Shown piece after piece: positions 35,511 through 44,484 of a DNA stretch of 64,000 nt. Position numbers and translations under genes: made by a program. The stretch's first letter is position 1; the number at the start of each line of letters is the position of its first letter. Under the pieces are notes generated by a model that saw only the letters and a list, made by a program, of their open reading frames with translations, did not search any database and was not told the origin of the DNA. This stretch comes from Chloroflexota bacterium (lineage in GTDB: Bacteria; Chloroflexota; Limnocylindria; Limnocylindrales; CSP1-4): assembly GCA_003156975.1 (NCBI GenBank), contig PMIE01000043.1, forward strand, positions 26,618 to 90,617, written 5' to 3'.

Positions 35511-38432
35511 TCAAGAGCCGAAAAGCGGCAGCTGCTCGCCGACCGTATCCGCGATCGCATCGAGACCGAGATACGGCTCCAGGTCCGCCAGCGTCGCCTC
35601 GGGCCGGGCCGCGAACTCGACCAGGTGGTTCCACTTGATGAAATGCCAATTGCGCTCTTCGATCGCCTTGCGCAACAGCGGCGAGCGAGCCAGCTTGACC
35701 TTCACCAGATCGGCCCTCTCCGGCGGGATGACCAGGAACCGAACGACCTTGTCCTCTTCCGGGTAGCGCGCGTGGCGGGTCAGAACGGGTTCACCGAGCA
35801 TTGCCGTCCATTCGACCTCGAACAGAAAGCTCGCCTTGCGGCGGACGTACCAGGCGCAGTCGACTCGCTCGAGCTCGCCATCGGGAGCCCAGGCGATGAG
35901 CGGCAGATGGATTTCGTGTTCCGCCGTATCCAGCCGATCCGCGAGCGGGCGGCCACCGACTCTGCGATCCTGCTGGCGCTTGCCGATCCAGACGCTCATC
36001 CCCAGGTTGTGGCCGACATCGGCCAGCAAGGCGATGATTCGGTCGTGGTCCGCGGTGCGGCCTTCCAACTGCTCGAAGCCCGCCACCGACTCTGGGGTGC
36101 TCCCTGGAGCAAGGTAGCTGGCGAAACAAGCCTCCACGAGATCGCGGTCCGGGGCTTCGCGGCCTTTGAACATGGCCATGACTCGCTCGAACGCGGCCCG
36201 CTCTGTCAGATGACCCGCCGACGACAGGAGCGAAAAGACCCCCCACTCCACCCTGTCGGCCAGCGGTTGCGCCGCGACGCCGCGATCCTCGTCCGAGGCC
36301 AACCAGTACTGGCCGGGCTCTATCTGGCGGATGCCGCGATTGTTGGGCCGGTCCAACTCCTCATGGATGATCTGGATCAGTTGCGCCACCGGATCCGTGC
36401 GTGAGGCTTCATCGGGCATCCCCAGAATCGTCCGCACCGCGGCACGGGCCGAGTCTCCCGTGGAGACTCCGGTGGTGGCGCGGCTCCTCGCCACCTCCTG
36501 GACCTTGCCGTCGGCGGTCGTGTCGCTCGATGACGCGTCGACCCAGGCCGACCACCCATCGTCGGCGTGGTCGGGCCGCAGAACCCGCGCCAGACGGGCG
36601 AGCTGCCCCGAAGCGTCGAGCCCAATCAGGACATCGCCGAGGATGTGATCGAAGTTCGCCGGCTCTCCTCTGGCCTTCAGCAGCTCCACAGCAGTATCCG
36701 TAATCGCCTGGGCGGCGGCGCCTACCCGGAATGGACCGTCGTCGAGTCTCTCGGGCGCCGCGAAGGCTCCCCGGCCCGGAATGGTTCCGGGGTCGCCGGC
36801 CCCGCCCTCCACCGGCGGCAGCGGACGATTGGCCCGCGTCCGCGGCCCGGGCGCCATGACGCCGGTTCCCGGCACGAAGGCGACGATGCCGGGACTGTCG
36901 TCCCCGCCCCGATGAAGACGGGCATCGATCAGACGACAGCCCGCCGCCGCTCCGCCGAGAGCCGCCGCGACCAGAGTGGCGGGCTGGGCATCGTCGAGCA
37001 GCAGAACGGCCCGACCTGTCTGCGCGAGAGCCGGCGTGGCGATGGCCAGTGACCTGCCCACGGCTCGGGCCAGATCCACCGCTTCCTCTTCCGGGGTCGG
37101 CTTCGACGTGGGCTTGAACAACTCGTCGTGCGGCAGAAGGGCCACGGCGGCCGCCCCAAAAACCCAGCCCGTTCCGTGATACAGCGCCGCGAGCCGTTCC
37201 GGCGTCCAGCGAAGAGGCGCCTGCCCCAGAACGAGCCTCACGCGCGATTGCGACCCGGAGTGGGCCATCCGCTCGCCGTGGAGCCCGAGACGGCGCAGCG
37301 AGCCTGGTGTCGCCTCTCCGACGGTCACATTGGCCGTGGTTCCCTCCAGAGTTGAGATATCGACGCCGGGGCGGGCCAGAGCGGACCGTGGCGTCCCCGA
37401 TTCGAGACTGAGGCAGAAGGACTTGACCAGATTCAACCCGGCCTCGAAGGCCAGCCACGGGTTGAGTTCGTGCCACTCGCGCGCGGTCGGCACCTTGAGG
37501 ACGCCGTTGGCTATGCGAACCGGCGCAGGCTTGCCCTGAGTAACGTTCAGCCGGCTCGCCAGCAGGACGGCGTGGAGGAAGGCGAGGCGGAGCGCCGCGG
37601 TGAGGGCTCCGTCGCGATCCTCCGCATCGATACGAGTGAGGATCGCATGCAACCCCAGGAGCTGGCGCGGCGTGTGGAGGTCTACGAGCTGATCCACAAG
37701 AGGGTGCGTTGGCCGTGGCGCCGGAAACCGCCGCCGCATCGCCTCGCGAACCTCACCGCTCGAAGGGACCGACTCCGCAAGCCGGACGTCGCCGAGGGTG
37801 AAGACCGCCGACCGAAGCTCGGCGCCGCCTTCCTTGGCCTGGCAGTACGGGCACCTGTACTCGCGGGCAATCGGGCGGAGAAACTCCTCCGGGCCCGCCT
37901 GCAACTCGTGAACGGGGCCCGACAAGGCAGGTGTGCGGGATGCGGAGGCCTTGGCGCGGCTGCGCCCCGGGGACTTGCCCGCGGCGATGCCCTCGGCCCG
38001 CACGGGCACGGCCACAGGCTGCCAGACCATTGACTCCAGGATCACCGGGCGGCTGCACGTCGGGCAGACGCTCGCGTAGAGCGCCTCGATGGTCCTCCGA
38101 ACCGTAGAACCGGAGAACGGCGAGTTCGAGATAGCCGTCATGGCGGACTCGACCTGGCGCACGTTAGGCGGACGAAGAACTACATCGGCGAGCAGCCTCG
38201 TCAGTGGCCAGATTTCATAGTCCGCGGCCCGGCGTTGCTCCGCGATCGCGGCCCGAGCAACCCAGCCGCCACGGCCGTTCAGGTCCAGGACCACTTCGCC
38301 CGGCTTGGTTCCCGCTTCAATTGCCGCGACACATTCCGATGCCGGGGCGGGTGGGCAGAGGCGCTCGAAAAATGGCAGCGTGGGAACGCTGGCGAGCACA
38401 GGCTCGGGGTTTGTGGCGGCACTCCCGACCAT
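35511..38432 (-). CDS. large (973 aa) protein with a SAM-MTase motif-I-like segment, two Zn-ribbon CxxC pairs and a C-terminal nuclease-like region (DUF1156/COG1743-like?)
   Basis: EVVLDLNGRGGWVARAA at residues 46-62 resembles methyltransferase motif I. CPTC (123-126) and CPYC (194-197) form a candidate zinc ribbon. The C-terminal ...VDCAWYV...FLFEVEWT resembles a PD-(D/E)xK core. Composition is protein-like throughout. Confidence 0.55.
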   Translation of the reverse strand: MVGSAATNPEPVLASVPTLPFFERLCPPAPASECVAAIEAGTKPGEVVLDLNGRGGWVARAAIAEQRRAADYEIWPLTRLLADVVLRPPNVRQVESAMTAISNSPFSGSTVRRTIEALYASVCPTCSRPVILESMVWQPVAVPVRAEGIAAGKSPGRSRAKASASRTPALSGPVHELQAGPEEFLRPIAREYRCPYCQAKEGGAELRSAVFTLGDVRLAESVPSSGEVREAMRRRFPAPRPTHPLVDQLVDLHTPRQLLGLHAILTRIDAEDRDGALTAALRLAFLHAVLLASRLNVTQGKPAPVRIANGVLKVPTAREWHELNPWLAFEAGLNLVKSFCLSLESGTPRSALARPGVDISTLEGTTANVTVGEATPGSLRRLGLHGERMAHSGSQSRVRLVLGQAPLRWTPERLAALYHGTGWVFGAAAVALLPHDELFKPTSKPTPEEEAVDLARAVGRSLAIATPALAQTGRAVLLLDDAQPATLVAAALGGAAAGCRLIDARLHRGGDDSPGIVAFVPGTGVMAPGPRTRANRPLPPVEGGAGDPGTIPGRGAFAAPERLDDGPFRVGAAAQAITDTAVELLKARGEPANFDHILGDVLIGLDASGQLARLARVLRPDHADDGWSAWVDASSSDTTADGKVQEVARSRATTGVSTGDSARAAVRTILGMPDEASRTDPVAQLIQIIHEELDRPNNRGIRQIEPGQYWLASDEDRGVAAQPLADRVEWGVFSLLSSAGHLTERAAFERVMAMFKGREAPDRDLVEACFASYLAPGSTPESVAGFEQLEGRTADHDRIIALLADVGHNLGMSVWIGKRQQDRRVGGRPLADRLDTAEHEIHLPLIAWAPDGELERVDCAWYVRRKASFLFEVEWTAMLGEPVLTRHARYPEEDKVVRFLVIPPERADLVKVKLARSPLLRKAIEERNWHFIKWNHLVEFAARPEATLADLEPYLGLDAIADTVGEQLPLFGS

Positions 38433-38606
38433 GCCTCAATTGTGACAGACGGACCGGCCGACGACTGCCGGTTGTCCGCCCCACGGACCGAGGCCGCTGC
38501 AGGGCGAGCCTTTTCGATCCGACTGGCGAACCTTTTGGGTTCACCAGTCGTCGGTGAGTGTCAAAGGGTCCGACGGCGCAGCCGGCCGAGCCCGACAATC
38601 CACGAG

Positions 38607-39167
38607 ATGGGGCGACATGTGCAAGCAGTAACCGCGGACACGGCGCGTGAGACTCCGACGCTCGATGCGTTCGAAGCTCTCAGCGACCGCTGTCTCGACG
38701 ATTCGTACCGGTTGGCGGCCGTGGTCTTGCGCGACCAGGCCGAAGCGCAGGATGTCGTCCACGACGCGGTCCTGCTGGGATGGCGCAAGTTCGGTTCGTT
38801 GCGCGATCCGGCACGCTTCGACGCCTGGTTCGGGCGGATCGTCCTGAACCTATGTCGCGACCGGCTCCGGACCAGGCGGCGTGGGCAGGTCCGCGAGGCG
38901 GCGCTCGTCGCCGAAATGGATATGGGTGGGCACGACGACTTTGGTCGCGTGATGGAGCGCGATGCAATCGCCGCCGCCTTTCCCACGCTCGATCCAGACC
39001 TGCAGTTGGTCGTGGCCCTGCGGTTCTACAAAGACCTCCAACTCGAGGCGATCGCCGACCTTCTGGGCATCCCACTCGGGACCGTGAAATCGCGTCTCCA
39101 CACCGGACTGAAGCGCCTGCGTGCCGAGCTCGAACGAGCCGGCTGGCGAGGGGAGAACGAACGATGA
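38607..39167 (+). CDS. RNA polymerase sigma-70 factor, ECF subfamily
   Basis: Region 2 (DVVHDAVLLGWRKF) and region 4 (LQLEAIADLLGIPLGTVKSRLHTGLKRLR) are present. Length is ~187 aa. The 5' extension of ORF 38235.. is rejected. Confidence 0.8.
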   Translation: MGRHVQAVTADTARETPTLDAFEALSDRCLDDSYRLAAVVLRDQAEAQDVVHDAVLLGWRKFGSLRDPARFDAWFGRIVLNLCRDRLRTRRRGQVREAALVAEMDMGGHDDFGRVMERDAIAAAFPTLDPDLQLVVALRFYKDLQLEAIADLLGIPLGTVKSRLHTGLKRLRAELERAGWRGENER

Positions 39168-40660
39168 AGTACCAGGCCGGCAGCTTTGCCGCGGCGCGAA
39201 AAGGCCACTCCGATCGACCGGACCGAATGGAAGCTGAACTCACCAGATGGCTCGACGGACTCGAGCCGACCGGAACTCCCATCGCCCTGCGCCTCCGGAC
39301 TTTCGCCGATCTCCGGGAAGAGGCCGCGCGACCGCGGCGGCGATTCGCCCGGCTGGGACCGGCGCTCTCGTCGATTGGCTCGCTCGGGGCGATCGTCATC
39401 GGGGCGAGCCTGATCATGCTGGTCGCGGTCGTTGGAGCGACGGTAGACCATGCCCACGCAGTCGCAGGCGGGATGGCTCCGCTAACGGGCAGCGGGTCCG
39501 TTCCGCAGACGCCGGGGGACTTCTCGGACATCGGCTACGGCCCGGACCCGGTGGCACTATCGATTCTCTTCGCAGCGACGGCGCTGGCCGCCTGGGGCGC
39601 GCTCCAGACACGAGTCCGGCGATTCGTGGCGCGCGTGACGTACGGCAAGGACGAAGCTCCTGCCGGCGAGCCTCTCCCTTTCAAGCGGCAGCTTCGCCAC
39701 ATGCCGCGCGCGGCGTTGGCTACGGGAGCGATCGGGGCGTTGTTCGTGGCTTGGGAAATCTGGATGGTTCTCACCTATCAGGGCGCAGGGCTGATCCAGC
39801 CGAACTGGATTGTCTTCTTTCAGTGGATCGGGCTGATCACGTTCATCCCCTACTGCTCCATCGTGGCGCTGCGCTATCGCCTGGCAGATCGATCGAGCAG
39901 GCTGCTGCTTACGGCGACGACCGCGATGCTGGCCGCCTACGTCCTCGTTGCGGCTCTCCTCACGCTGGATCTGATGACGATCTACAGCCAGTGGCTGAAC
40001 GAGCTCGCTGAGCTGTCCACCAGTCTCATGGCGGTCTCCACCGTCGCTCTGGCCGCCGGCCTGGCAAGTCGCCACGGAGGAATACCGCGGCCTCCACTGT
40101 GGATCGCGTCAACCATCGTGGGTGGCTTCTTCTTGCTCGTTGCGGCCGGGTACTTCATCGTCGGGATGTGGCCGCACACGGCGGAGGGCTGGATCACAGA
40201 CGCCACCGGGATCCTGTCCAGTTGGCTCGGCACGGTCGGCTGGGCTGCGATCACATGGATTGGCCTCTCCGCCTGGCGGCAGAGAAGCTCATGGGGCTGG
40301 CGGCTGCTTCTGTTCGTTGGGGTTCTCGCCCTGCTGGACCGCGTCCCCGGGTACGTGCTCGGGATCTACTCCTCGAACTCAATTGCCACCTCGCCTGGTG
40401 GAGACGGGAGCCTCCTGGAAACGATCCGAATGCAGTACTTCTGGTGGAAGAGCACGGGCATGACCCTGGAGATGTTCGGGGTTCTCGTCGTCCTCGTGAG
40501 CGGCCTTCGGATCGCGCGGCCGAGTCTCGGGGACCCCGCTTCTCCGTTGCAGGACGACGAACTTGGGCCGATCCAGTCACCGGCCGAGGATGTCGCGAGC
40601 GCGAATCGGATGGACGGCGCGAGCAACGCGGCGGCGGACGGCATATCGGCGGACGCATAA
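39164..40660 (+). CDS. putative anti-sigma factor / polytopic membrane protein
   Basis: The ATG overlaps the sigma-factor stop as ATGA. A ~60-aa cytoplasmic N-domain is followed by ≥10 TM helices. Confidence 0.6.
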   Translation: MKYQAGSFAAARKGHSDRPDRMEAELTRWLDGLEPTGTPIALRLRTFADLREEAARPRRRFARLGPALSSIGSLGAIVIGASLIMLVAVVGATVDHAHAVAGGMAPLTGSGSVPQTPGDFSDIGYGPDPVALSILFAATALAAWGALQTRVRRFVARVTYGKDEAPAGEPLPFKRQLRHMPRAALATGAIGALFVAWEIWMVLTYQGAGLIQPNWIVFFQWIGLITFIPYCSIVALRYRLADRSSRLLLTATTAMLAAYVLVAALLTLDLMTIYSQWLNELAELSTSLMAVSTVALAAGLASRHGGIPRPPLWIASTIVGGFFLLVAAGYFIVGMWPHTAEGWITDATGILSSWLGTVGWAAITWIGLSAWRQRSSWGWRLLLFVGVLALLDRVPGYVLGIYSSNSIATSPGGDGSLLETIRMQYFWWKSTGMTLEMFGVLVVLVSGLRIARPSLGDPASPLQDDELGPIQSPAEDVASANRMDGASNAAADGISADA

Positions 40661-40745: not shown

Positions 40746-41684
40746 CTACGCCTCGTCGAGGTCGTCGGTCTCCTCTTCGAAGGCTTCCTCGCCGGTGATC
40801 TCGGCGGGCAGCACCCGATCGAGGTCCTGGATGCCCTCATCTTCTTCGTCGTCCTCGAGATCCTCTTCCATGAGCTCTTCCTCGCGGAGAAGCGTGCCCT
40901 TGGTATATGGGCGCAGGTCCGAGGAACGAGCGGCCGTTGGGAAGCTGACCTTGCCGTAGTTGCGGGGGTCCTGGAAGATCTCGCGGATGACGATCCGGAC
41001 GTCGCGATCGCCGAGCGACGTGATTCCGGCCGAGTACTTGTTGCCGTCGGCGAGCAGCTTGAGCAGGCGCGCGGCGACGCGCGGCTCGACGATGCCGATG
41101 AGCTGTCCGTTGGCGTGGGCGAAGAGCCGGTTGCCCTCGGCCATCAGCTCAACGGAGTCGCCCGGATTGACGTGAGCAAGGAGGCGAGGAGAGGCGAGGT
41201 CCGTCAGCATCGCGAAGCCGGTCTTGCCGGTCTCCTCCACGAAGATGGCAACGGGCGCCTTTTCGGCCTTCTCCGGCGGGGCGGTCTTGTCGCCGGCTTC
41301 GCTCATGAGAACGCGCAGCCGCTCGATGTTCCGCTCGGCGATTCTGTTCGTGGGATCCAGGGCGAGAGCAACCTGGTAGTGCTCCCGCGCTTCGCCCAGC
41401 TCACCCATCTCCCAAAGGGATTTGGCGAGGCGATTCTCGGCCTCGGCTTCTGGGCCGAACTCAAGGATCTTGCGGTTGGTCTCGGCCGCCTCCGCCCAGC
41501 GACCTGCGGCGCCGTGGCCGATCGCCTGTTCGGCCAGCTGTCGCTTGATCCGAACGGTGTTGCCGCCGGTGGTCTTTTCGATCTCGGGGAAGGCCAAGGA
41601 GATGTGTCCTTTCGTTGGCTGCGCCAGGCCGATTGCTGGAGCGGCGAGATGGCGGTGGTTGCCATCTCGCGGAAGGCATACCAA
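40746..41684 (-). CDS. TPR-repeat protein with a highly acidic C-terminal tail
   Basis: TPR-like helices appear in WAEAAETNRKILEFGPEA...GELGEAREHYQVALALDPTN. The C-terminal EELMEEDLEDDEEDEG...EEAFEEETDDLDEA is an acidic tail. The real start is more likely the TTG at 41597, which has AAGGA 9 nt upstream. Confidence 0.6.
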   Translation of the reverse strand: MVCLPRDGNHRHLAAPAIGLAQPTKGHISLAFPEIEKTTGGNTVRIKRQLAEQAIGHGAAGRWAEAAETNRKILEFGPEAEAENRLAKSLWEMGELGEAREHYQVALALDPTNRIAERNIERLRVLMSEAGDKTAPPEKAEKAPVAIFVEETGKTGFAMLTDLASPRLLAHVNPGDSVELMAEGNRLFAHANGQLIGIVEPRVAARLLKLLADGNKYSAGITSLGDRDVRIVIREIFQDPRNYGKVSFPTAARSSDLRPYTKGTLLREEELMEEDLEDDEEDEGIQDLDRVLPAEITGEEAFEEETDDLDEA

Positions 41685-41767: not shown

Positions 41768-42634
41768 TCAGCCCCTCCGAACGAAGACCCGCAGCTCGCC
41801 GGCCCACAGCTGGAGGTCCAGGACAACTTCCTCCGTTCTGATCAGATATCCCGTCAGTTCGAGCAGTTCGTTGTATTGCGGGATGGCCTGCTGGACGGTC
41901 TGATTGGCCAGACCGCCGTACGGCGGTTGTTCCGTGACGTCGTAGGCGCACCAGCGACCGTATCGGTCGACATAGGAGCGGTCCGACTCGCTCAGCGGTT
42001 CCGGCAGAGGATCCACCCAGGCCGCTCCATATGCCTCGAGCGTCCAGTCCGCGGCCGCATCGCACATCAAGACGAGCCCGTCGGCGAAGGTCAATTCGAT
42101 CGGGCCGTCGCTCGTGTTCACCTCGCCCTGGAACACGTAGTGGAGCCGCCGGATGCGCGTGATCTCCCGGCCCACCAGAGCTGGCGGGACGGATAGCCGG
42201 TTGGCGCGATTCCAGCCTTCGTGGCGCGGCAACCGCGCTCCCGGGGTCATGACCAGCGTCCGGAAGAGATGGTCCAGCGTGGCGGCGCAATCGCCGGTCA
42301 ATCCTGTGTGCACCTCGGAACGCCCGACCATCGTGCTGCTCGGCGATGACAACCAATGAAACCTTTCGGCCTTGGCGAGCGCCGCGATCGGGCCGGCGGA
42401 CGAGTCACCGCGGGCGACTCGCTCTATCCCCGCAAGCTGAGCGGCGATCTCATCCGCGTCGCAGTCCGGAGCGAGCGCCGTGAGACGGGTCACGTCCAGG
42501 CCCGTCCGGGCATCCAGGAAGCGCCGCTCCCTGCAGAACAGGACGACGCCGGCATTGATGAACTCGGCCCGTTCGACGCGTGGAACGGCCCGCAGGACTG
42601 TATACGTGAAGGGACTACGCGCCTGTGCGGACAC
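41768..42634 (-). CDS. DUF3037 domain protein with a C-terminal extension (partner of the HipA-like kinase)
   Basis: The GTG start has AGGAGG 6 nt upstream. The N-terminal FTYTVLRAVPRVERAEFINAGVVLF matches the DUF3037 consensus (YvPD..RgEfvNvGVil). Its 5' end overlaps the upstream kinase gene by 20 nt. Confidence 0.7.
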   Translation of the reverse strand: MSAQARSPFTYTVLRAVPRVERAEFINAGVVLFCRERRFLDARTGLDVTRLTALAPDCDADEIAAQLAGIERVARGDSSAGPIAALAKAERFHWLSSPSSTMVGRSEVHTGLTGDCAATLDHLFRTLVMTPGARLPRHEGWNRANRLSVPPALVGREITRIRRLHYVFQGEVNTSDGPIELTFADGLVLMCDAAADWTLEAYGAAWVDPLPEPLSESDRSYVDRYGRWCAYDVTEQPPYGGLANQTVQQAIPQYNELLELTGYLIRTEEVVLDLQLWAGELRVFVRRG

Positions 42635-43394
42635 GTTCCGCCTCCTGCGCGAGTGCTCGATGGACGGCCAGTCGACGGTTCAGGTAGTCGAGATATGCGG
42701 CCCTGTGGGCGGCTGGGTCCGGCAGGCCATCCTGCGGCACCAGCCAATCGTCGGGCACGGCCTCGACTATCGAGCGGAAGAGTTCCGCGGAGAGCAACGG
42801 GGCGAGCCGGTCGTCCGCTTCGACGATCGAGCCGGCGAGCGGCAGCAGGACGTGGCTCTTGATTGCGGCCAGCGGCTTGCGAGCGTGGGCCGGGACGTCC
42901 TTCCAGGTGTGGTGGATGTACAGGGCCGAGCCGTGGTCGATCAGCCACAAGCGGCGATGCCAGACCAGCAAGTTCGTGTTGCGGGCGTCGCGATCCACGT
43001 TGGTGACGAAGGAGTCGAACCAGACGACGGCTGCGCAGACATCGGCGGGAGGCCTGAAGCCGGCGGCCGGATCAAGGCCCAGAGAACCGGGCAGGAAGTC
43101 CAAACCAACGTTCACGCCGCTGCTGCGCTGGAGCAGTTCCCGGATCTCCTGGTCGGGTTCGGCGGCCGCCAGGCGCGGGTCGAAGTTCACGAGCACGATC
43201 TCCGGGACGAGCAGCCCAAGTGCCCGGGCGATCTCTCCGGCAATCAGCTCGGCGACGAGGGCCTTCTCGCCGTGACCTGCGCCACGGAACTTGGCCACGT
43301 ACAAGCCGTCGTCGTCAGCCTCAACCACCGCCGGCAGCGAGCCACCCTCGCGCAGCGGGGTCACGTAGCGTGTAGCGGTGACGTGACGGATCAC
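42615..43394 (-). CDS. HipA-like Ser/Thr kinase domain protein (PI3/4-kinase-like fold)
   Basis: FVTNVDRDARNTNLLV...WLIDHGSALY matches the HipA catalytic-loop consensus (GNTDRH.KN...D). LYVAKFRGAGHGEKALVAE is a Gly-rich loop. Length is 259 aa. Confidence 0.65.
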   Translation of the reverse strand: MIRHVTATRYVTPLREGGSLPAVVEADDDGLYVAKFRGAGHGEKALVAELIAGEIARALGLLVPEIVLVNFDPRLAAAEPDQEIRELLQRSSGVNVGLDFLPGSLGLDPAAGFRPPADVCAAVVWFDSFVTNVDRDARNTNLLVWHRRLWLIDHGSALYIHHTWKDVPAHARKPLAAIKSHVLLPLAGSIVEADDRLAPLLSAELFRSIVEAVPDDWLVPQDGLPDPAAHRAAYLDYLNRRLAVHRALAQEAERVRTGA

Positions 43395-43545
43395 CCGGCA
43401 AGTATCGGCCTATGGCCGGGACCCCGCACAGCTGGTACGACAGTACGGGCGTTGCGTAGGCCGTGGCGCCCGAAGTGGCCGCCGGCCGTGGCGTGAATTC
43501 GGGGAGTGGCGGCCAATTCGGGGAGTGGCGGCAGCCGCCGTTCCT

Positions 43546-44484
43546 CTATCTGGCCAGCATGCCCCAGACCATGACGACCGCGGCGGCGAAGCCGAGTGCG
43601 GCCAGTTCCTTGAGCAACGGGTAGTTGTCCTTGAGCGGGTCCCGCGATTCTCTGATGGCCATGACCAGGTAAGCCACGAACATCAGCAAGGCCGGCACGA
43701 ATAGCCGTGGCAGCCCGAGTGTCCGAAGCAGAGTTGCGGCGACGGCGACGGCAACGGCGTACTGGCCGGTTGCGACTATTCGAACGATGCGATCGGAGCG
43801 GTACGGCGACGCCAGGGACGCCAGCCGATACCCCACGCCGCCTGCCACCAGGGCATTGAGAACAACAAACTCGGCCAGCCGCGTGCTGCTCAGGGCTTCG
43901 TGAGCGAGCGCCAGACCACCGGGGACCAGACCGCCCGCTGCAACGAACCCCAGAAAAGCGAGTCCCATAGCAGTGAGGCGAACATCCAGCGGCCGGGGGT
44001 GGGGCGACAGCTCGGGAGTGTGAATGACCACCGGCTCGACCACGATCTGCGCCAGGCCGAACTCGGCTCGCGGCCTGGGGCGCATACGAACTGCAGGGGC
44101 AACCGCCATGCCGGAGGCCACGGCGCTATCCGCGAAGGAGGCAGGGTCCTCGGAGGCCGTGAGCACGTCGGGTGCCGTCTCGAGGTCGAAGGCCCAGGCC
44201 ACGACCGCGAAACCGAGCGCGAAATCTAGAGCCAGCCATGGCACCGGGGAGACGACGCGGGCAATCCCCGCGATCGAGAAGGCGGCAAGCGCCGGGAACA
44301 CCATCGGGATGAGGGGCATGCGCCACGGAAGCCACTCCCCCACGAGCGGGGCCGTAGCGGCGGCGGCGGCCACCACTATCAGGGCCGTAACCACGAGCGC
44401 CGGAATCGGGTCCAGCCAGTGGACGAGAACTGCGATCGAGGCCACCACTAGCCCGAGTTCCCGGGCCACATTTCGTTGCTGCAT
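43546..44484 (-). CDS. hypothetical polytopic membrane protein
   Basis: The start is placed at MQQRNVARELGLVV (ATG at 44484). Eight to nine hydrophobic helices follow. The longer ORF extension is rejected. Confidence 0.55.
   Translation of the reverse strand: MQQRNVARELGLVVASIAVLVHWLDPIPALVVTALIVVAAAAATAPLVGEWLPWRMPLIPMVFPALAAFSIAGIARVVSPVPWLALDFALGFAVVAWAFDLETAPDVLTASEDPASFADSAVASGMAVAPAVRMRPRPRAEFGLAQIVVEPVVIHTPELSPHPRPLDVRLTAMGLAFLGFVAAGGLVPGGLALAHEALSSTRLAEFVVLNALVAGGVGYRLASLASPYRSDRIVRIVATGQYAVAVAVAATLLRTLGLPRLFVPALLMFVAYLVMAIRESRDPLKDNYPLLKELAALGFAAAVVMVWGMLAR

Follow-up and report, generated by a model that had tools for sequence, protein, structure and literature searches.

A HipA_2–DUF3037 kinase pair of Candidatus Limnocylindria whose partner carries a putative immunity-type domain

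Introduction

What might be the function of a HipA-like kinase whose gene runs into that of a DUF3037 protein in the chromosome of a Chloroflexota bacterium, and why does the second protein carry a long C-terminal extension? The two genes lie in a stretch of 64,000 nucleotides, the window, in which a sequence-only reading had picked them out as a putative toxin–antitoxin-like or signalling pair. The features of the locus are collected in Table 1. As a whole it is best explained as a two-gene HipA_2–DUF3037 kinase/neutraliser module with a clade-specific immunity-type domain on the partner, an account that we regard as probably, not assuredly, right.

Table 1. Features of the kinase/DUF3037 locus, with positions counted in the window
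Feature	Position	Strand	Details and basis
Partner gene: DUF3037 domain and fused C-terminal domain	41768..42634	-	ORF, 288 aa, GTG start
C-terminal domain of the partner, beta-rich, predicted NFACT-N-like fold	41771..42244	-	aa 131-288
DUF3037 domain, presumed kinase-neutralising module	42251..42604	-	aa 11-128; Pfam PF11236, E 4.4e-38
HipA_2-family Ser/Thr kinase gene	42615..43394	-	ORF, 259 aa, GTG start
Overlap of kinase stop and partner start, 20 nt	42615..42634	-	ORFs; kept in orthologous loci L001-L009
AGGAGG Shine–Dalgarno	42641..42646	-	Inside the kinase ORF, 6 nt upstream of the partner GTG; read from the sequence
Predicted promoter	43401..43430	-	Invariant blocks in an alignment of six orthologous upstream regions
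Two exact GCCACTCCCCGAA copies, spaced 19 nt	43498..43529	-	Upstream of the predicted promoter; sole exact matches in the window

The kinase and its partner

The kinase matches the Pfam model HipA_2 (PF20613, E 1.3e-18) and has the working parts of a Ser/Thr kinase: a Gly-rich loop (LREGGS, aa 14–19), K35, E49, a catalytic loop (D134-R-D-A-R-N139) and a Mg-binding Asp, D153, in LIDHG. Both motifs on which the sequence-only reading had based its call, VTNVDRDARNTN and LIDHGSALY, are present. That reading had also raised the case of a substituted catalytic Asp; D134 is unchanged and, like K35, E49, N139 and D153, does not vary within the clade or between phyla. By these residues the protein is predicted to be a minimal, catalytically intact Ser/Thr kinase core. 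NCBIfam gave no match to the kinase, the partner or the C-terminal domain of the latter, and no useful match was found when the kinase, the partner and the family profiles were compared with PDB chain sequences; a DnaB intein, the one hit in this search (E 0.9), was judged a chance match.

On the PADLOC model PDC-M66A the kinase scores 83.6 bits (E 3e-24) and the validated DS-6A 53.2 bits. The kinase also matches PHROG 3162, and the two-gene pair matches PHROGs 3162 and 5137. PDC-M66 is a PADLOC candidate, and DS-6, or HipAD, its validated counterpart in E. coli, is a defence system found with DefensePredictor (PMC13092281). Profile alignment of the window kinase with DS-6A by hhalign gives 97% probability (E 5e-11, ~27% identity) and pairs D134, in NVDR, with D139 of DS-6A, in NADR, the residue whose mutation to Ala (D139A) abolishes defence (PMC13092281).

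The partner contains the DUF3037 consensus FTYTVLRAVPRVERAEFINAGVVLF, as the sequence-only reading had it, and matches PDC-M66B (E 3.7e-12) over profile positions 4–129 of 281 only; DS-6B and a Pseudomonas partner match this model over its full length. It is constant in length across ~82 protein clusters, at 60–100% identity, with a dN/dS of 0.09–0.21. Elsewhere the C-termini of DUF3037 partners vary by lineage, being absent, DUF1829-like, wHTH or of the window type. Most members of the HipA_2–DUF3037 family function without any C-terminal domain, the short partners being of ~125–135 aa.

A second tested relative is the pair of the Retron-Sda1 operon, in which deletion of the kinase abolishes defence and deletion of DUF3037 is toxic; this HipA-like/DUF3037 pair acts as a standalone defence system (PMC12548924). 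Judged by the matches above, the window pair belongs to the PDC-M66/DS-6/HipAD family and, as this is a recently described family of kinase/DUF3037 toxin–antitoxin and phage-defence systems, is not new in itself. The proposal of a toxin–antitoxin-like pair is thus backed by analogy, the homologues behaving as toxin–antitoxin and phage-defence systems (PMC12548924, PMC13092281), and from the same two studies DUF3037 is presumed to be the kinase-neutralising module.

The likeness to DS-6/HipAD consists of a HipA_2-type kinase followed by an overlapping DUF3037 gene, matches to both PDC-M66A and PDC-M66B, and no HipB; the Retron-Sda1 pair has the same two-gene architecture. The differences are considerable. 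Kinase identity to DS-6 is low, as noted, and the DUF1829-like C-terminal half of DS-6B is unrelated to the C-terminal domain in the window; comparison of the C-domain family with the C-termini of DS-6B and the Pseudomonas partner gave 0.1% probability (hhalign). DS-6 is part of a prophage or of accessory DNA; the window pair, in contrast, is chromosomal and vertically inherited. The Retron-Sda1 partner has a C-terminus resembling a DNA-binding (wHTH) retron protein and lies beside a retron RT/ncRNA, neither of which is found in the window. That the experimentally tested systems share only ~27% kinase identity, and have unrelated partner C-termini, counts against our account.

The closest subfamily is that of the short-partner pairs of Bacteroides, Streptomyces, Stenotrophomonas, Pyrinomonadaceae and others, with 44–68% kinase identity. 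Here too the two genes overlap or adjoin and the invariant residues are kept, and locus L017 even has the synteny of the window. Their partner is DUF3037 alone (~125–135 aa), to which the window clade has added a domain of 158 aa.

Operon layout and expression signals

The kinase-first order, the 20-nt overlap and the AGGAGG ahead of the partner, all remarked on in the sequence-only reading, are borne out by the ORFs and the sequence. The overlap suggests translational coupling. Translation of the partner would start from the internal AGGAGG, within the 20-nt overlap, so that the partner would be produced whenever the kinase is.

The predicted promoter comprises a -35-like TGTGCG (43430–43425), an 18-nt spacer and a -10-like GATACT (43406–43401), which ends 6 nt from the kinase GTG. 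The two hexamers are the sole invariant blocks among the six aligned upstream regions. A generic sigma-70 promoter scan flagged nothing, 43401–43430 included, and for this reason the promoter is one that we infer. There is no Shine–Dalgarno ahead of the kinase start; the predicted promoter would drive the operon on its own account and yield a leaderless kinase mRNA. An Rfam scan of the locus returned a noise-level match only. The copy number of the GCCACTCCCCGAA repeat differs among orthologues.

Genomic context and distribution of the family

At all 80 sampled genome loci DUF3037 lies directly downstream of the kinase on the same strand. This answers the check on co-conservation that the sequence-only reading had proposed and, with Pfam and the 20-nt overlap, upholds the core of its description: a kinase of the HipA superfamily in tight coupling with a DUF3037 partner that is not HipB and apparently not HipS either. 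Database proteins that appear to be DUF3037+HipA_2 fusions have Arg/Ser/Pro-rich linkers, which are typical of frameshifted read-through between overlapping genes, and were therefore counted as adjacency rather than as true fusions.

The setting had been called island-like, and this proved wrong. The GC content of the pair is that of its flanks, and orthologous contigs share the neighbourhood, whose conserved order in Candidatus Limnocylindria is MgtE, GGDEF, PolX, membrane protein, kinase, DUF3037 and TPR. The gene upstream of the kinase encodes the membrane protein, of 300 aa and with no Pfam match. The pair is a single copy in the window, and PolX and TPR, its neighbours, have the same dN/dS (~0.1–0.2). 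It is inherited vertically among ordinary genes in this Chloroflexota lineage. An accessory or mobile context (prophage, plasmid or defence island) is typical of the PDC-M66 family, if not strictly defining, and is absent here. Examination of 88 loci revealed no conserved third gene and no defence-island signature; apart from generic ABC, response-regulator and histidine-kinase genes and a single lineage-specific HhH gene no neighbour recurred, and defence or mobile genes did not recur near the pair.

The kinase is 50–65% identical across at least 10 phyla and was found at 598 loci or more. Its neighbour-joining tree mostly tracks phylum and order, with a few misplaced taxa that imply some mobility. 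Limnocylindria and Stenotrophomonas each keep a stable synteny around the pair; between families the contexts differ completely.

Much of this would suit another explanation, in which the kinase of the conserved chromosomal subfamily serves housekeeping or regulation, rather than toxin–antitoxin action or defence, and has DUF3037 as its own regulatory or substrate subunit, the mobile HipAD/DS-6 systems being a weaponised offshoot. Identity and breadth across phyla, a tree close to taxonomy, the two cases of stable synteny, dN/dS as in PolX and TPR, GC as in the flanks, the lack of recurring defence or mobile neighbours and the single copy in the window all speak for it. Several of these (synteny among ordinary genes, no recurring defence or mobile genes, the tree and the cross-phylum identity) are at the same time points against the kinase/neutraliser module. 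However, what experiments there are on the family found toxicity and defence, and the window kinase scores at least as high as the validated DS-6A on PDC-M66A. Genes that overlap so tightly, with the kinase first, are typical of toxin–antitoxin coupling, the misplaced taxa and the complete change of context between families point to some mobility, and a partner fused to an immunity-type domain fits a conflict system. We consider the housekeeping role a real but rather doubtful alternative.

The C-terminal domain of the partner

The sequence-only reading had remarked on a C-terminal extension of ~160 aa as atypical of DUF3037. The extension is real and is conserved in ~80 protein clusters. Its confident predicted model (pLDDT 92.6) describes a separate domain of NFACT-N-like fold; the model of the full-length partner (pTM 0.53) has no confident inter-domain geometry. 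In fold searches the domain matches solved NFACT-N structures at 8–14% identity. It would thus share its fold with the NFACT-N domain of RqcH/Rqc2/NEMF and FbpA/PavA, but not the sequence family: Pfam gave no match to the domain or to any of nine homologues at E up to 1, NFACT_N included. Nor is there any Pfam, NCBIfam, PADLOC or PHROG model for it, and no viral fold in BFVD matched it at E ≤ 0.001. Its dN/dS of 0.11–0.17 indicates purifying selection. The partner at the syntenic locus L017 is short and lacks the domain, which on this comparison would be a gain in this Limnocylindria clade only.

The relatives of the domain are informative. An exhaustive phmmer search found 374 matches, among them standalone homologues with E down to 6e-22; this standalone family came from the exhaustive protein search, a word-index search having given only close relatives, and a metagenome scan for homologues was run with a tight C-domain alignment. 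The standalone proteins, of ~150 aa, are encoded in the immunity-gene position after colicin-D-like toxin tips, with a tip directly upstream at 13 of 33 loci. At L105, for instance, the gene after the tip encodes P0279 (E 7e-16 to the C-terminal domain), and at L115 the tip is the end of an RHS + PT-HINT protein. Built into a profile, the tips match the tRNase domain of colicin D (E 1.9e-5), and they carry the K-KHxxD Tox-ColD signature, which is a published one (PMC3482391). The arrangement resembles that of Tox-ColD/colicin D–ImmD pairs (PMC3482391), the homologues standing directly after tips of this colicin-D-like kind. The domain is not ImmD, Imm22 or Imm64, however, and matches no Pfam Imm model. 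Unlike Tox-ColD immunity genes, it is fused in the window to DUF3037, with no toxin gene nearby: no toxin-tip or colicin-D-like gene was found in the window or at any kinase locus. Conversely, no kinase lies near the standalone genes at the 33 loci, and at the 78 other kinase loci there is no C-domain within ±6 kb, which means that standalone C-domain genes do not serve there as a third operon gene.

On this evidence the C-terminal domain is, in sequence terms, an immunity-type domain of colicin-D-like polymorphic toxin systems. The immunity role of the standalone family appears from gene position only, and from the same position after Tox-ColD-like tips it follows that the family presumably binds the colicin-D fold.

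If so, the domain might be a sensor or decoy: an RNase of colicin-D fold that enters the cell, brought in by a phage or by the RHS toxin of a competitor, would bind it and free the kinase, converting toxin detection into growth arrest. The immunity position of the homologues agrees with such a role, as does the purifying selection on the domain, and lineage-varying partner C-termini are the pattern expected of a swappable input module. The argument is purely inferential, and an orphan immunity domain that protects independently explains the same data. Most members of the family work without any C-terminal domain, and the lack of a confident inter-domain geometry in the full-length model also counts against this role. 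We think a sensor or decoy unlikely.

Comparison with HipBA and HipBST

A canonical HipBA/HipBST persistence module in reversed order, its kinase acting on an aminoacyl-tRNA synthetase, would account for the HipA-superfamily motifs, namely the Gly-rich loop with Ser, the catalytic DxxxxN and the Mg-binding Asp. The concept of a kinase toxin restrained by a small partner would also be shared, by analogy in the case of the window. The resemblance to HipA that had been read from the sequence holds at the superfamily level, in these core motifs, but does not extend to E. coli HipA itself, against which the window kinase gives 1.4% probability (hhalign, not significant). The window kinase has no detectable sequence-profile similarity to HipA and no N-terminal subdomain, is of 259 aa as against 440 aa, and matches neither HipA_C nor HipA_N; a weak HipA_C match (E 0.037) was obtained for 1 of 14 family members. 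HipB is absent, and apparently HipS as well; the genes stand in reversed order, no HTH occurs in the partner, and no HipB gene lies upstream of the kinase. As a claim of membership in canonical HipBA the reading is refuted, and a persistence module of the HipBA or HipBST kind is very improbable. A decaying remnant or functionless pseudokinase is hardly credible, given that the catalytic residues are all invariant, both reading frames are intact in >80 clusters and dN/dS is 0.1–0.2.

Proposed mechanism

In the kinase/neutraliser module that we favour, free kinase would arrest growth, and the N-terminal DUF3037 domain would bind the kinase and keep it inactive, both by analogy with the tested homologues. 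Some insult would then free the kinase; in the tested relatives it is phage infection. The partner seems to have acquired a protein-binding domain whose family would normally supply the immunity proteins of colicin-D-like tRNase toxins, and whose most likely ligand is a protein of colicin-D fold. The domain could simply be carried along, as an orphan immunity function, by a protein that is always expressed, or it could feed a signal into the kinase–partner complex and so modulate it. The analysis itself establishes the anatomy of the genes, their family membership, the intact catalytic residues, co-occurrence, vertical inheritance and purifying selection and, for the C-terminal domain, the modelled fold, the homology and the toxin-adjacent setting of its homologues. 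What we infer is that the kinase is toxic and that DUF3037 neutralises it, together with the trigger, the substrate of the kinase and whatever the C-terminal domain may do.

Significance

The kinase/DUF3037 pairing was validated as a phage-defence toxin–antitoxin system only in 2025–2026, and only in mobile members of the E. coli type; HipAD was reportedly described by Brenes & Laub in 2025. The present locus reveals a large, strongly conserved and mostly vertical chromosomal subfamily, which may not share the biology of its mobile, defensive relatives. The DUF3037 partners are modular, with unrelated C-terminal domains in different lineages.

The new element is the C-terminal domain fused to DUF3037, from an uncatalogued family of predicted NFACT-N-like fold. 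Its members appear to serve as immunity proteins against colicin-D-like RHS toxins and merit a family model of their own. If the fused domain is functional, there would be a testable crosstalk between interbacterial-toxin immunity and an intracellular kinase toxin–antitoxin module; were it a sensor or decoy, recognition of interbacterial toxins would be wired straight to kinase-driven growth arrest.

The kinase/DUF3037 pair and known defence systems

The pair belongs to a system that has already been described. In Pfam, the kinase matches HipA_2 (PF20613, E = 1.3e-18) and residues 11-128 of the partner match DUF3037 (PF11236, E = 4.4e-38); partner residues 130-288 have no Pfam match, and neither protein has an NCBIfam model. 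The ORF list, strand reading and Pfam confirm the kinase length, the 20-nt overlap of the two ORFs, the DUF3037 assignment and the AGGAGG ribosome-binding site read from the sequence alone. Among PADLOC models, those of the candidate two-gene phage-defence system PDC-M66 match both proteins (model A the kinase, E = 3e-24; model B the partner, E = 3.7e-12), and PHROGs holds (pro)phage families for each.

A HipA-like kinase and a DUF3037 protein of the Retron-Sda1 operon constitute a standalone defence against phage Bas51, which is lost on deletion of the kinase, whereas deletion of the DUF3037 gene is toxic; the same work reports a strong genomic association of the two families and gives the PDC-M66 label (PMC12548924). 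Escherichia coli DS-6, validated via DefensePredictor and renamed HipAD (citing Brenes & Laub 2025), loses defence when its kinase, DS-6A, carries D139A, and AlphaFold3 predicts an interface between DS-6A and its partner DS-6B (PMC13092281). Using the DS-6 sequences from the supplement of that paper, the profile of the window kinase family matches DS-6A with 97% probability (E = 5e-11, 27% identity), pairing D139 (NADR) with window D134 (NVDR) and LIDHN with LIDHG. The window kinase scores higher against PDC-M66A (83.6 bits) than DS-6A itself does (53.2 bits). Comparison of the family profile with E. coli HipA was not significant, and HipA_C matched, weakly, one of 14 family members, so the name 'HipA' holds at the superfamily level only. 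Membership of canonical HipBA was rejected. The published phylogeny of Hip kinases is without DUF3037 systems (PMC8262856). The sequence-only reading of a kinase toxin–antitoxin-like or signalling pair was right in kind, but the system is not new.

Features of the locus and its flanks
Feature	Positions	Strand	Remarks
Kinase ORF	42615..43394	-	259 aa, GTG start
Partner ORF	41768..42634	-	288 aa, GTG start
AGGAGG	42646-42641	-	6 nt 5' of partner GTG, within 3' end of kinase ORF
GATACT block	43406-43401	-	
TGTGCG block	43430-43425	-	
Predicted promoter	43401-43430	-	
Two exact copies of GCCACTCCCCGAA	43498-43529	-	19 nt apart; upstream of predicted promoter
Multi-pass membrane protein	43546-44448	-	~300 aa, no Pfam match
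TPR protein	40746-41597	-	283 aa, acidic tail; 86-92% identical across clade
ECF-type sigma factor gene, then ~500-aa membrane protein	38235-40660	+	adjoins TPR gene

Conservation of the pair and of the kinase

With one genome sampled per species, at least 598 loci encode a related kinase. Of these, the best 80 (50-86% kinase identity) span Chloroflexota, Acidobacteriota, Actinomycetota, Pseudomonadota, Cyanobacteriota, Myxococcota, Bacteroidota, Verrucomicrobiota, Abditibacteriota and Ignavibacteria, and in all 80 a DUF3037 domain lies directly downstream, which bears out co-conservation of the pair. The arrangement is the same in annotated plasmid and chromid records. When all flanking ORFs were clustered, neither a third gene accompanying the pair nor any recurring defence or mobile gene emerged. 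Database proteins that seem to fuse DUF3037 and HipA_2 (P0090, P0091, P0102-P0104, P0115, P0116, P0120) have junctions rich in Arg, Ser and Pro and are probably frameshifted read-throughs of overlapping genes; the same kind of artefact may underlie some DUF3037 matches whose listing includes PPOX or another domain. On Streptomyces sp. 2P-4 plasmid NZ_CP095012.1 (92222-93363), a HipA_2 kinase and a short DUF3037 protein are encoded within a polyketide cluster, where PPTase and ccrA genes flank them and the elfamycin efflux gene facT is near (also H6, S. globosus), an unexpected setting for a defence module.

Invariant in the clade and across phyla are the Gly-rich LREGGS (residues 14-19), K35 (in YVAKF), E49, the catalytic-loop D134 and N139, and D153-H-G. 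A substitution of the catalytic Asp, named in the sequence-only reading as a finding that would count against it, was looked for and is absent. Pseudogene status was likewise rejected for the pair. By analogy with HipA and HipT, S19 of the Gly-rich loop is a candidate autophosphorylation site.

In an alignment of six orthologous upstream regions, TGTGCG and GATACT are invariant, with ~18 nt between them, and GATACT lies 6 nt ahead of the kinase start codon; the sole other invariant block is a short stretch where the preceding membrane-protein gene ends. These blocks, with no Shine-Dalgarno before the kinase start on strand reading, suggest a dedicated promoter and a leaderless kinase mRNA. A generic sigma-70 scan did not flag this interval, and no Rfam family matches the locus. 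The GCCACTCCCCGAA copies, absent from two orthologues (L007, L008) and more numerous in a third (L005), could represent an operator, or else a small repeat undergoing expansion.

Inheritance of the module

The pair had been described as island-like, a view that its GC content (0.66-0.68, equal to that of the flanks) and conserved gene order contradict. Close homologues carry the name Candidatus Limnocylindrales, a Chloroflexota order. On contigs with identical or 63-88% identical partners, the common order is MgtE, GGDEF, PolX-PHP, ~300-aa membrane protein, kinase, DUF3037, TPR and ~1000-aa protein, and the 20-nt overlap is kept throughout. Pairwise dN/dS against five orthologous loci, rough since dS is near saturation, is 0.13-0.19 for the kinase, 0.09-0.21 for the DUF3037 part, 0.11-0.17 for the C-terminal domain, 0.10-0.14 for both PolX and the TPR protein, and 0.25-0.50 for the membrane protein. 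A neighbour-joining tree of 88 kinases, drawn without support values, shows mostly phylum or order groups with a few misplaced taxa. Flanks are kept within Stenotrophomonas and part of Chloroflexia, but not between families. Taken together, these results describe a self-contained module, stably inherited over short to medium distances and occasionally transferred, unlike the Pseudomonas plasmid copies, which are IS-flanked and ~28% identical. The same synteny, phylogeny largely following taxonomy and housekeeping-like constraint point towards the main rival explanation, held to be less probable than the model below: a role in cellular regulation, as opposed to a toxic one, for the kinases of this deeply conserved chromosomal subfamily.

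The membrane-protein and TPR genes always bracket the pair in Limnocylindria, with gaps of ~150-170 nt. Beyond the TPR gene, the ~500-aa membrane protein beside the ECF sigma gene is possibly an anti-sigma factor; this arrangement is present in L001 and L002 and absent from more distant syntenic loci.

The added C-terminal domain

The C-terminal extension of the partner, described from the sequence alone as atypical, is real: it has many invariant residues and occurs in ~80 clusters, all ~288 aa long. It is absent from all other lineages sampled and from locus L017, which shares the synteny of the window and has a 77% identical kinase with a partner of only ~130 aa, and so was gained within one Limnocylindria subclade. 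It is not related to the C-terminal half of either DS-6B or the Pseudomonas partner. Exhaustive phmmer with residues 131-288 found 374 homologues, of which 159 reach E <= 1e-10. Standalone proteins, 140-170 aa long, make up nearly the whole set, and fusions to HEAT repeats, transmembrane segments or other uncharacterised N- or C-terminal regions account for a few (P0340, P0268, P0290, P0291, P0354). The family has no model in Pfam, NCBIfam, PADLOC or PHROG, and its predicted fold is NFACT-N-like.

A metagenome scan with the standalone-family alignment gave 38 loci, five of the fused clade and 33 standalone. No kinase or DUF3037 gene lies near any of the 33, and 13 are directly downstream of, often overlapping, a conserved ~100-aa C-terminal tip. 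In one locus (L115) the tip forms the end of a 1,643-aa protein that carries RHS repeats and a pretoxin-HINT domain (PF07591, E = 1.2e-19), the standard polymorphic-toxin/immunity arrangement. The tip has no Pfam model; the colicin D tRNase domain is the sole match in PDB sequences for a profile built from seven tips (1tfo_A, E = 1.9e-5; also 1v74_A, 1tfk_A and 5znm_A). K608, H611 and D614 of colicin D are essential, and the invariant K, H and D of the tips agree with the published Tox-ColD signature (PMC3482391). The downstream placement and the colicin-D match and signature of the tips put the family in the immunity position for colicin-D-like toxins, and we infer an immunity function from that position; this uncatalogued ~150-aa family (metagenome loci L097-L121) has the look of one that newly provides immunity to toxins of the Tox-ColD type. 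The window contains no toxin tip and no paralogue of the kinase, DUF3037 or the C-terminal domain elsewhere, and the domain is here an orphan immunity-type module fused to DUF3037.

A model for the operon

The reading we prefer, and hold as a whole to be reasonably probable, is that the operon yields a catalytically competent minimal kinase and a translationally coupled partner, whose DUF3037 domain would bind and silence the kinase in the manner of HipAD and the Sda1 system. The freed kinase would cause growth arrest. The added domain would have a protein of colicin-D fold as its binding partner, and would act either independently, in orphan immunity, or as an input to regulation.

What is new at this locus is a fusion, specific to this lineage, between DUF3037 and an uncatalogued domain of predicted NFACT-N-like fold, the link of that domain, drawn from gene position, to colicin-D-like toxin immunity, and the recognition of a large, conserved and mostly vertically inherited kinase/DUF3037 subfamily.
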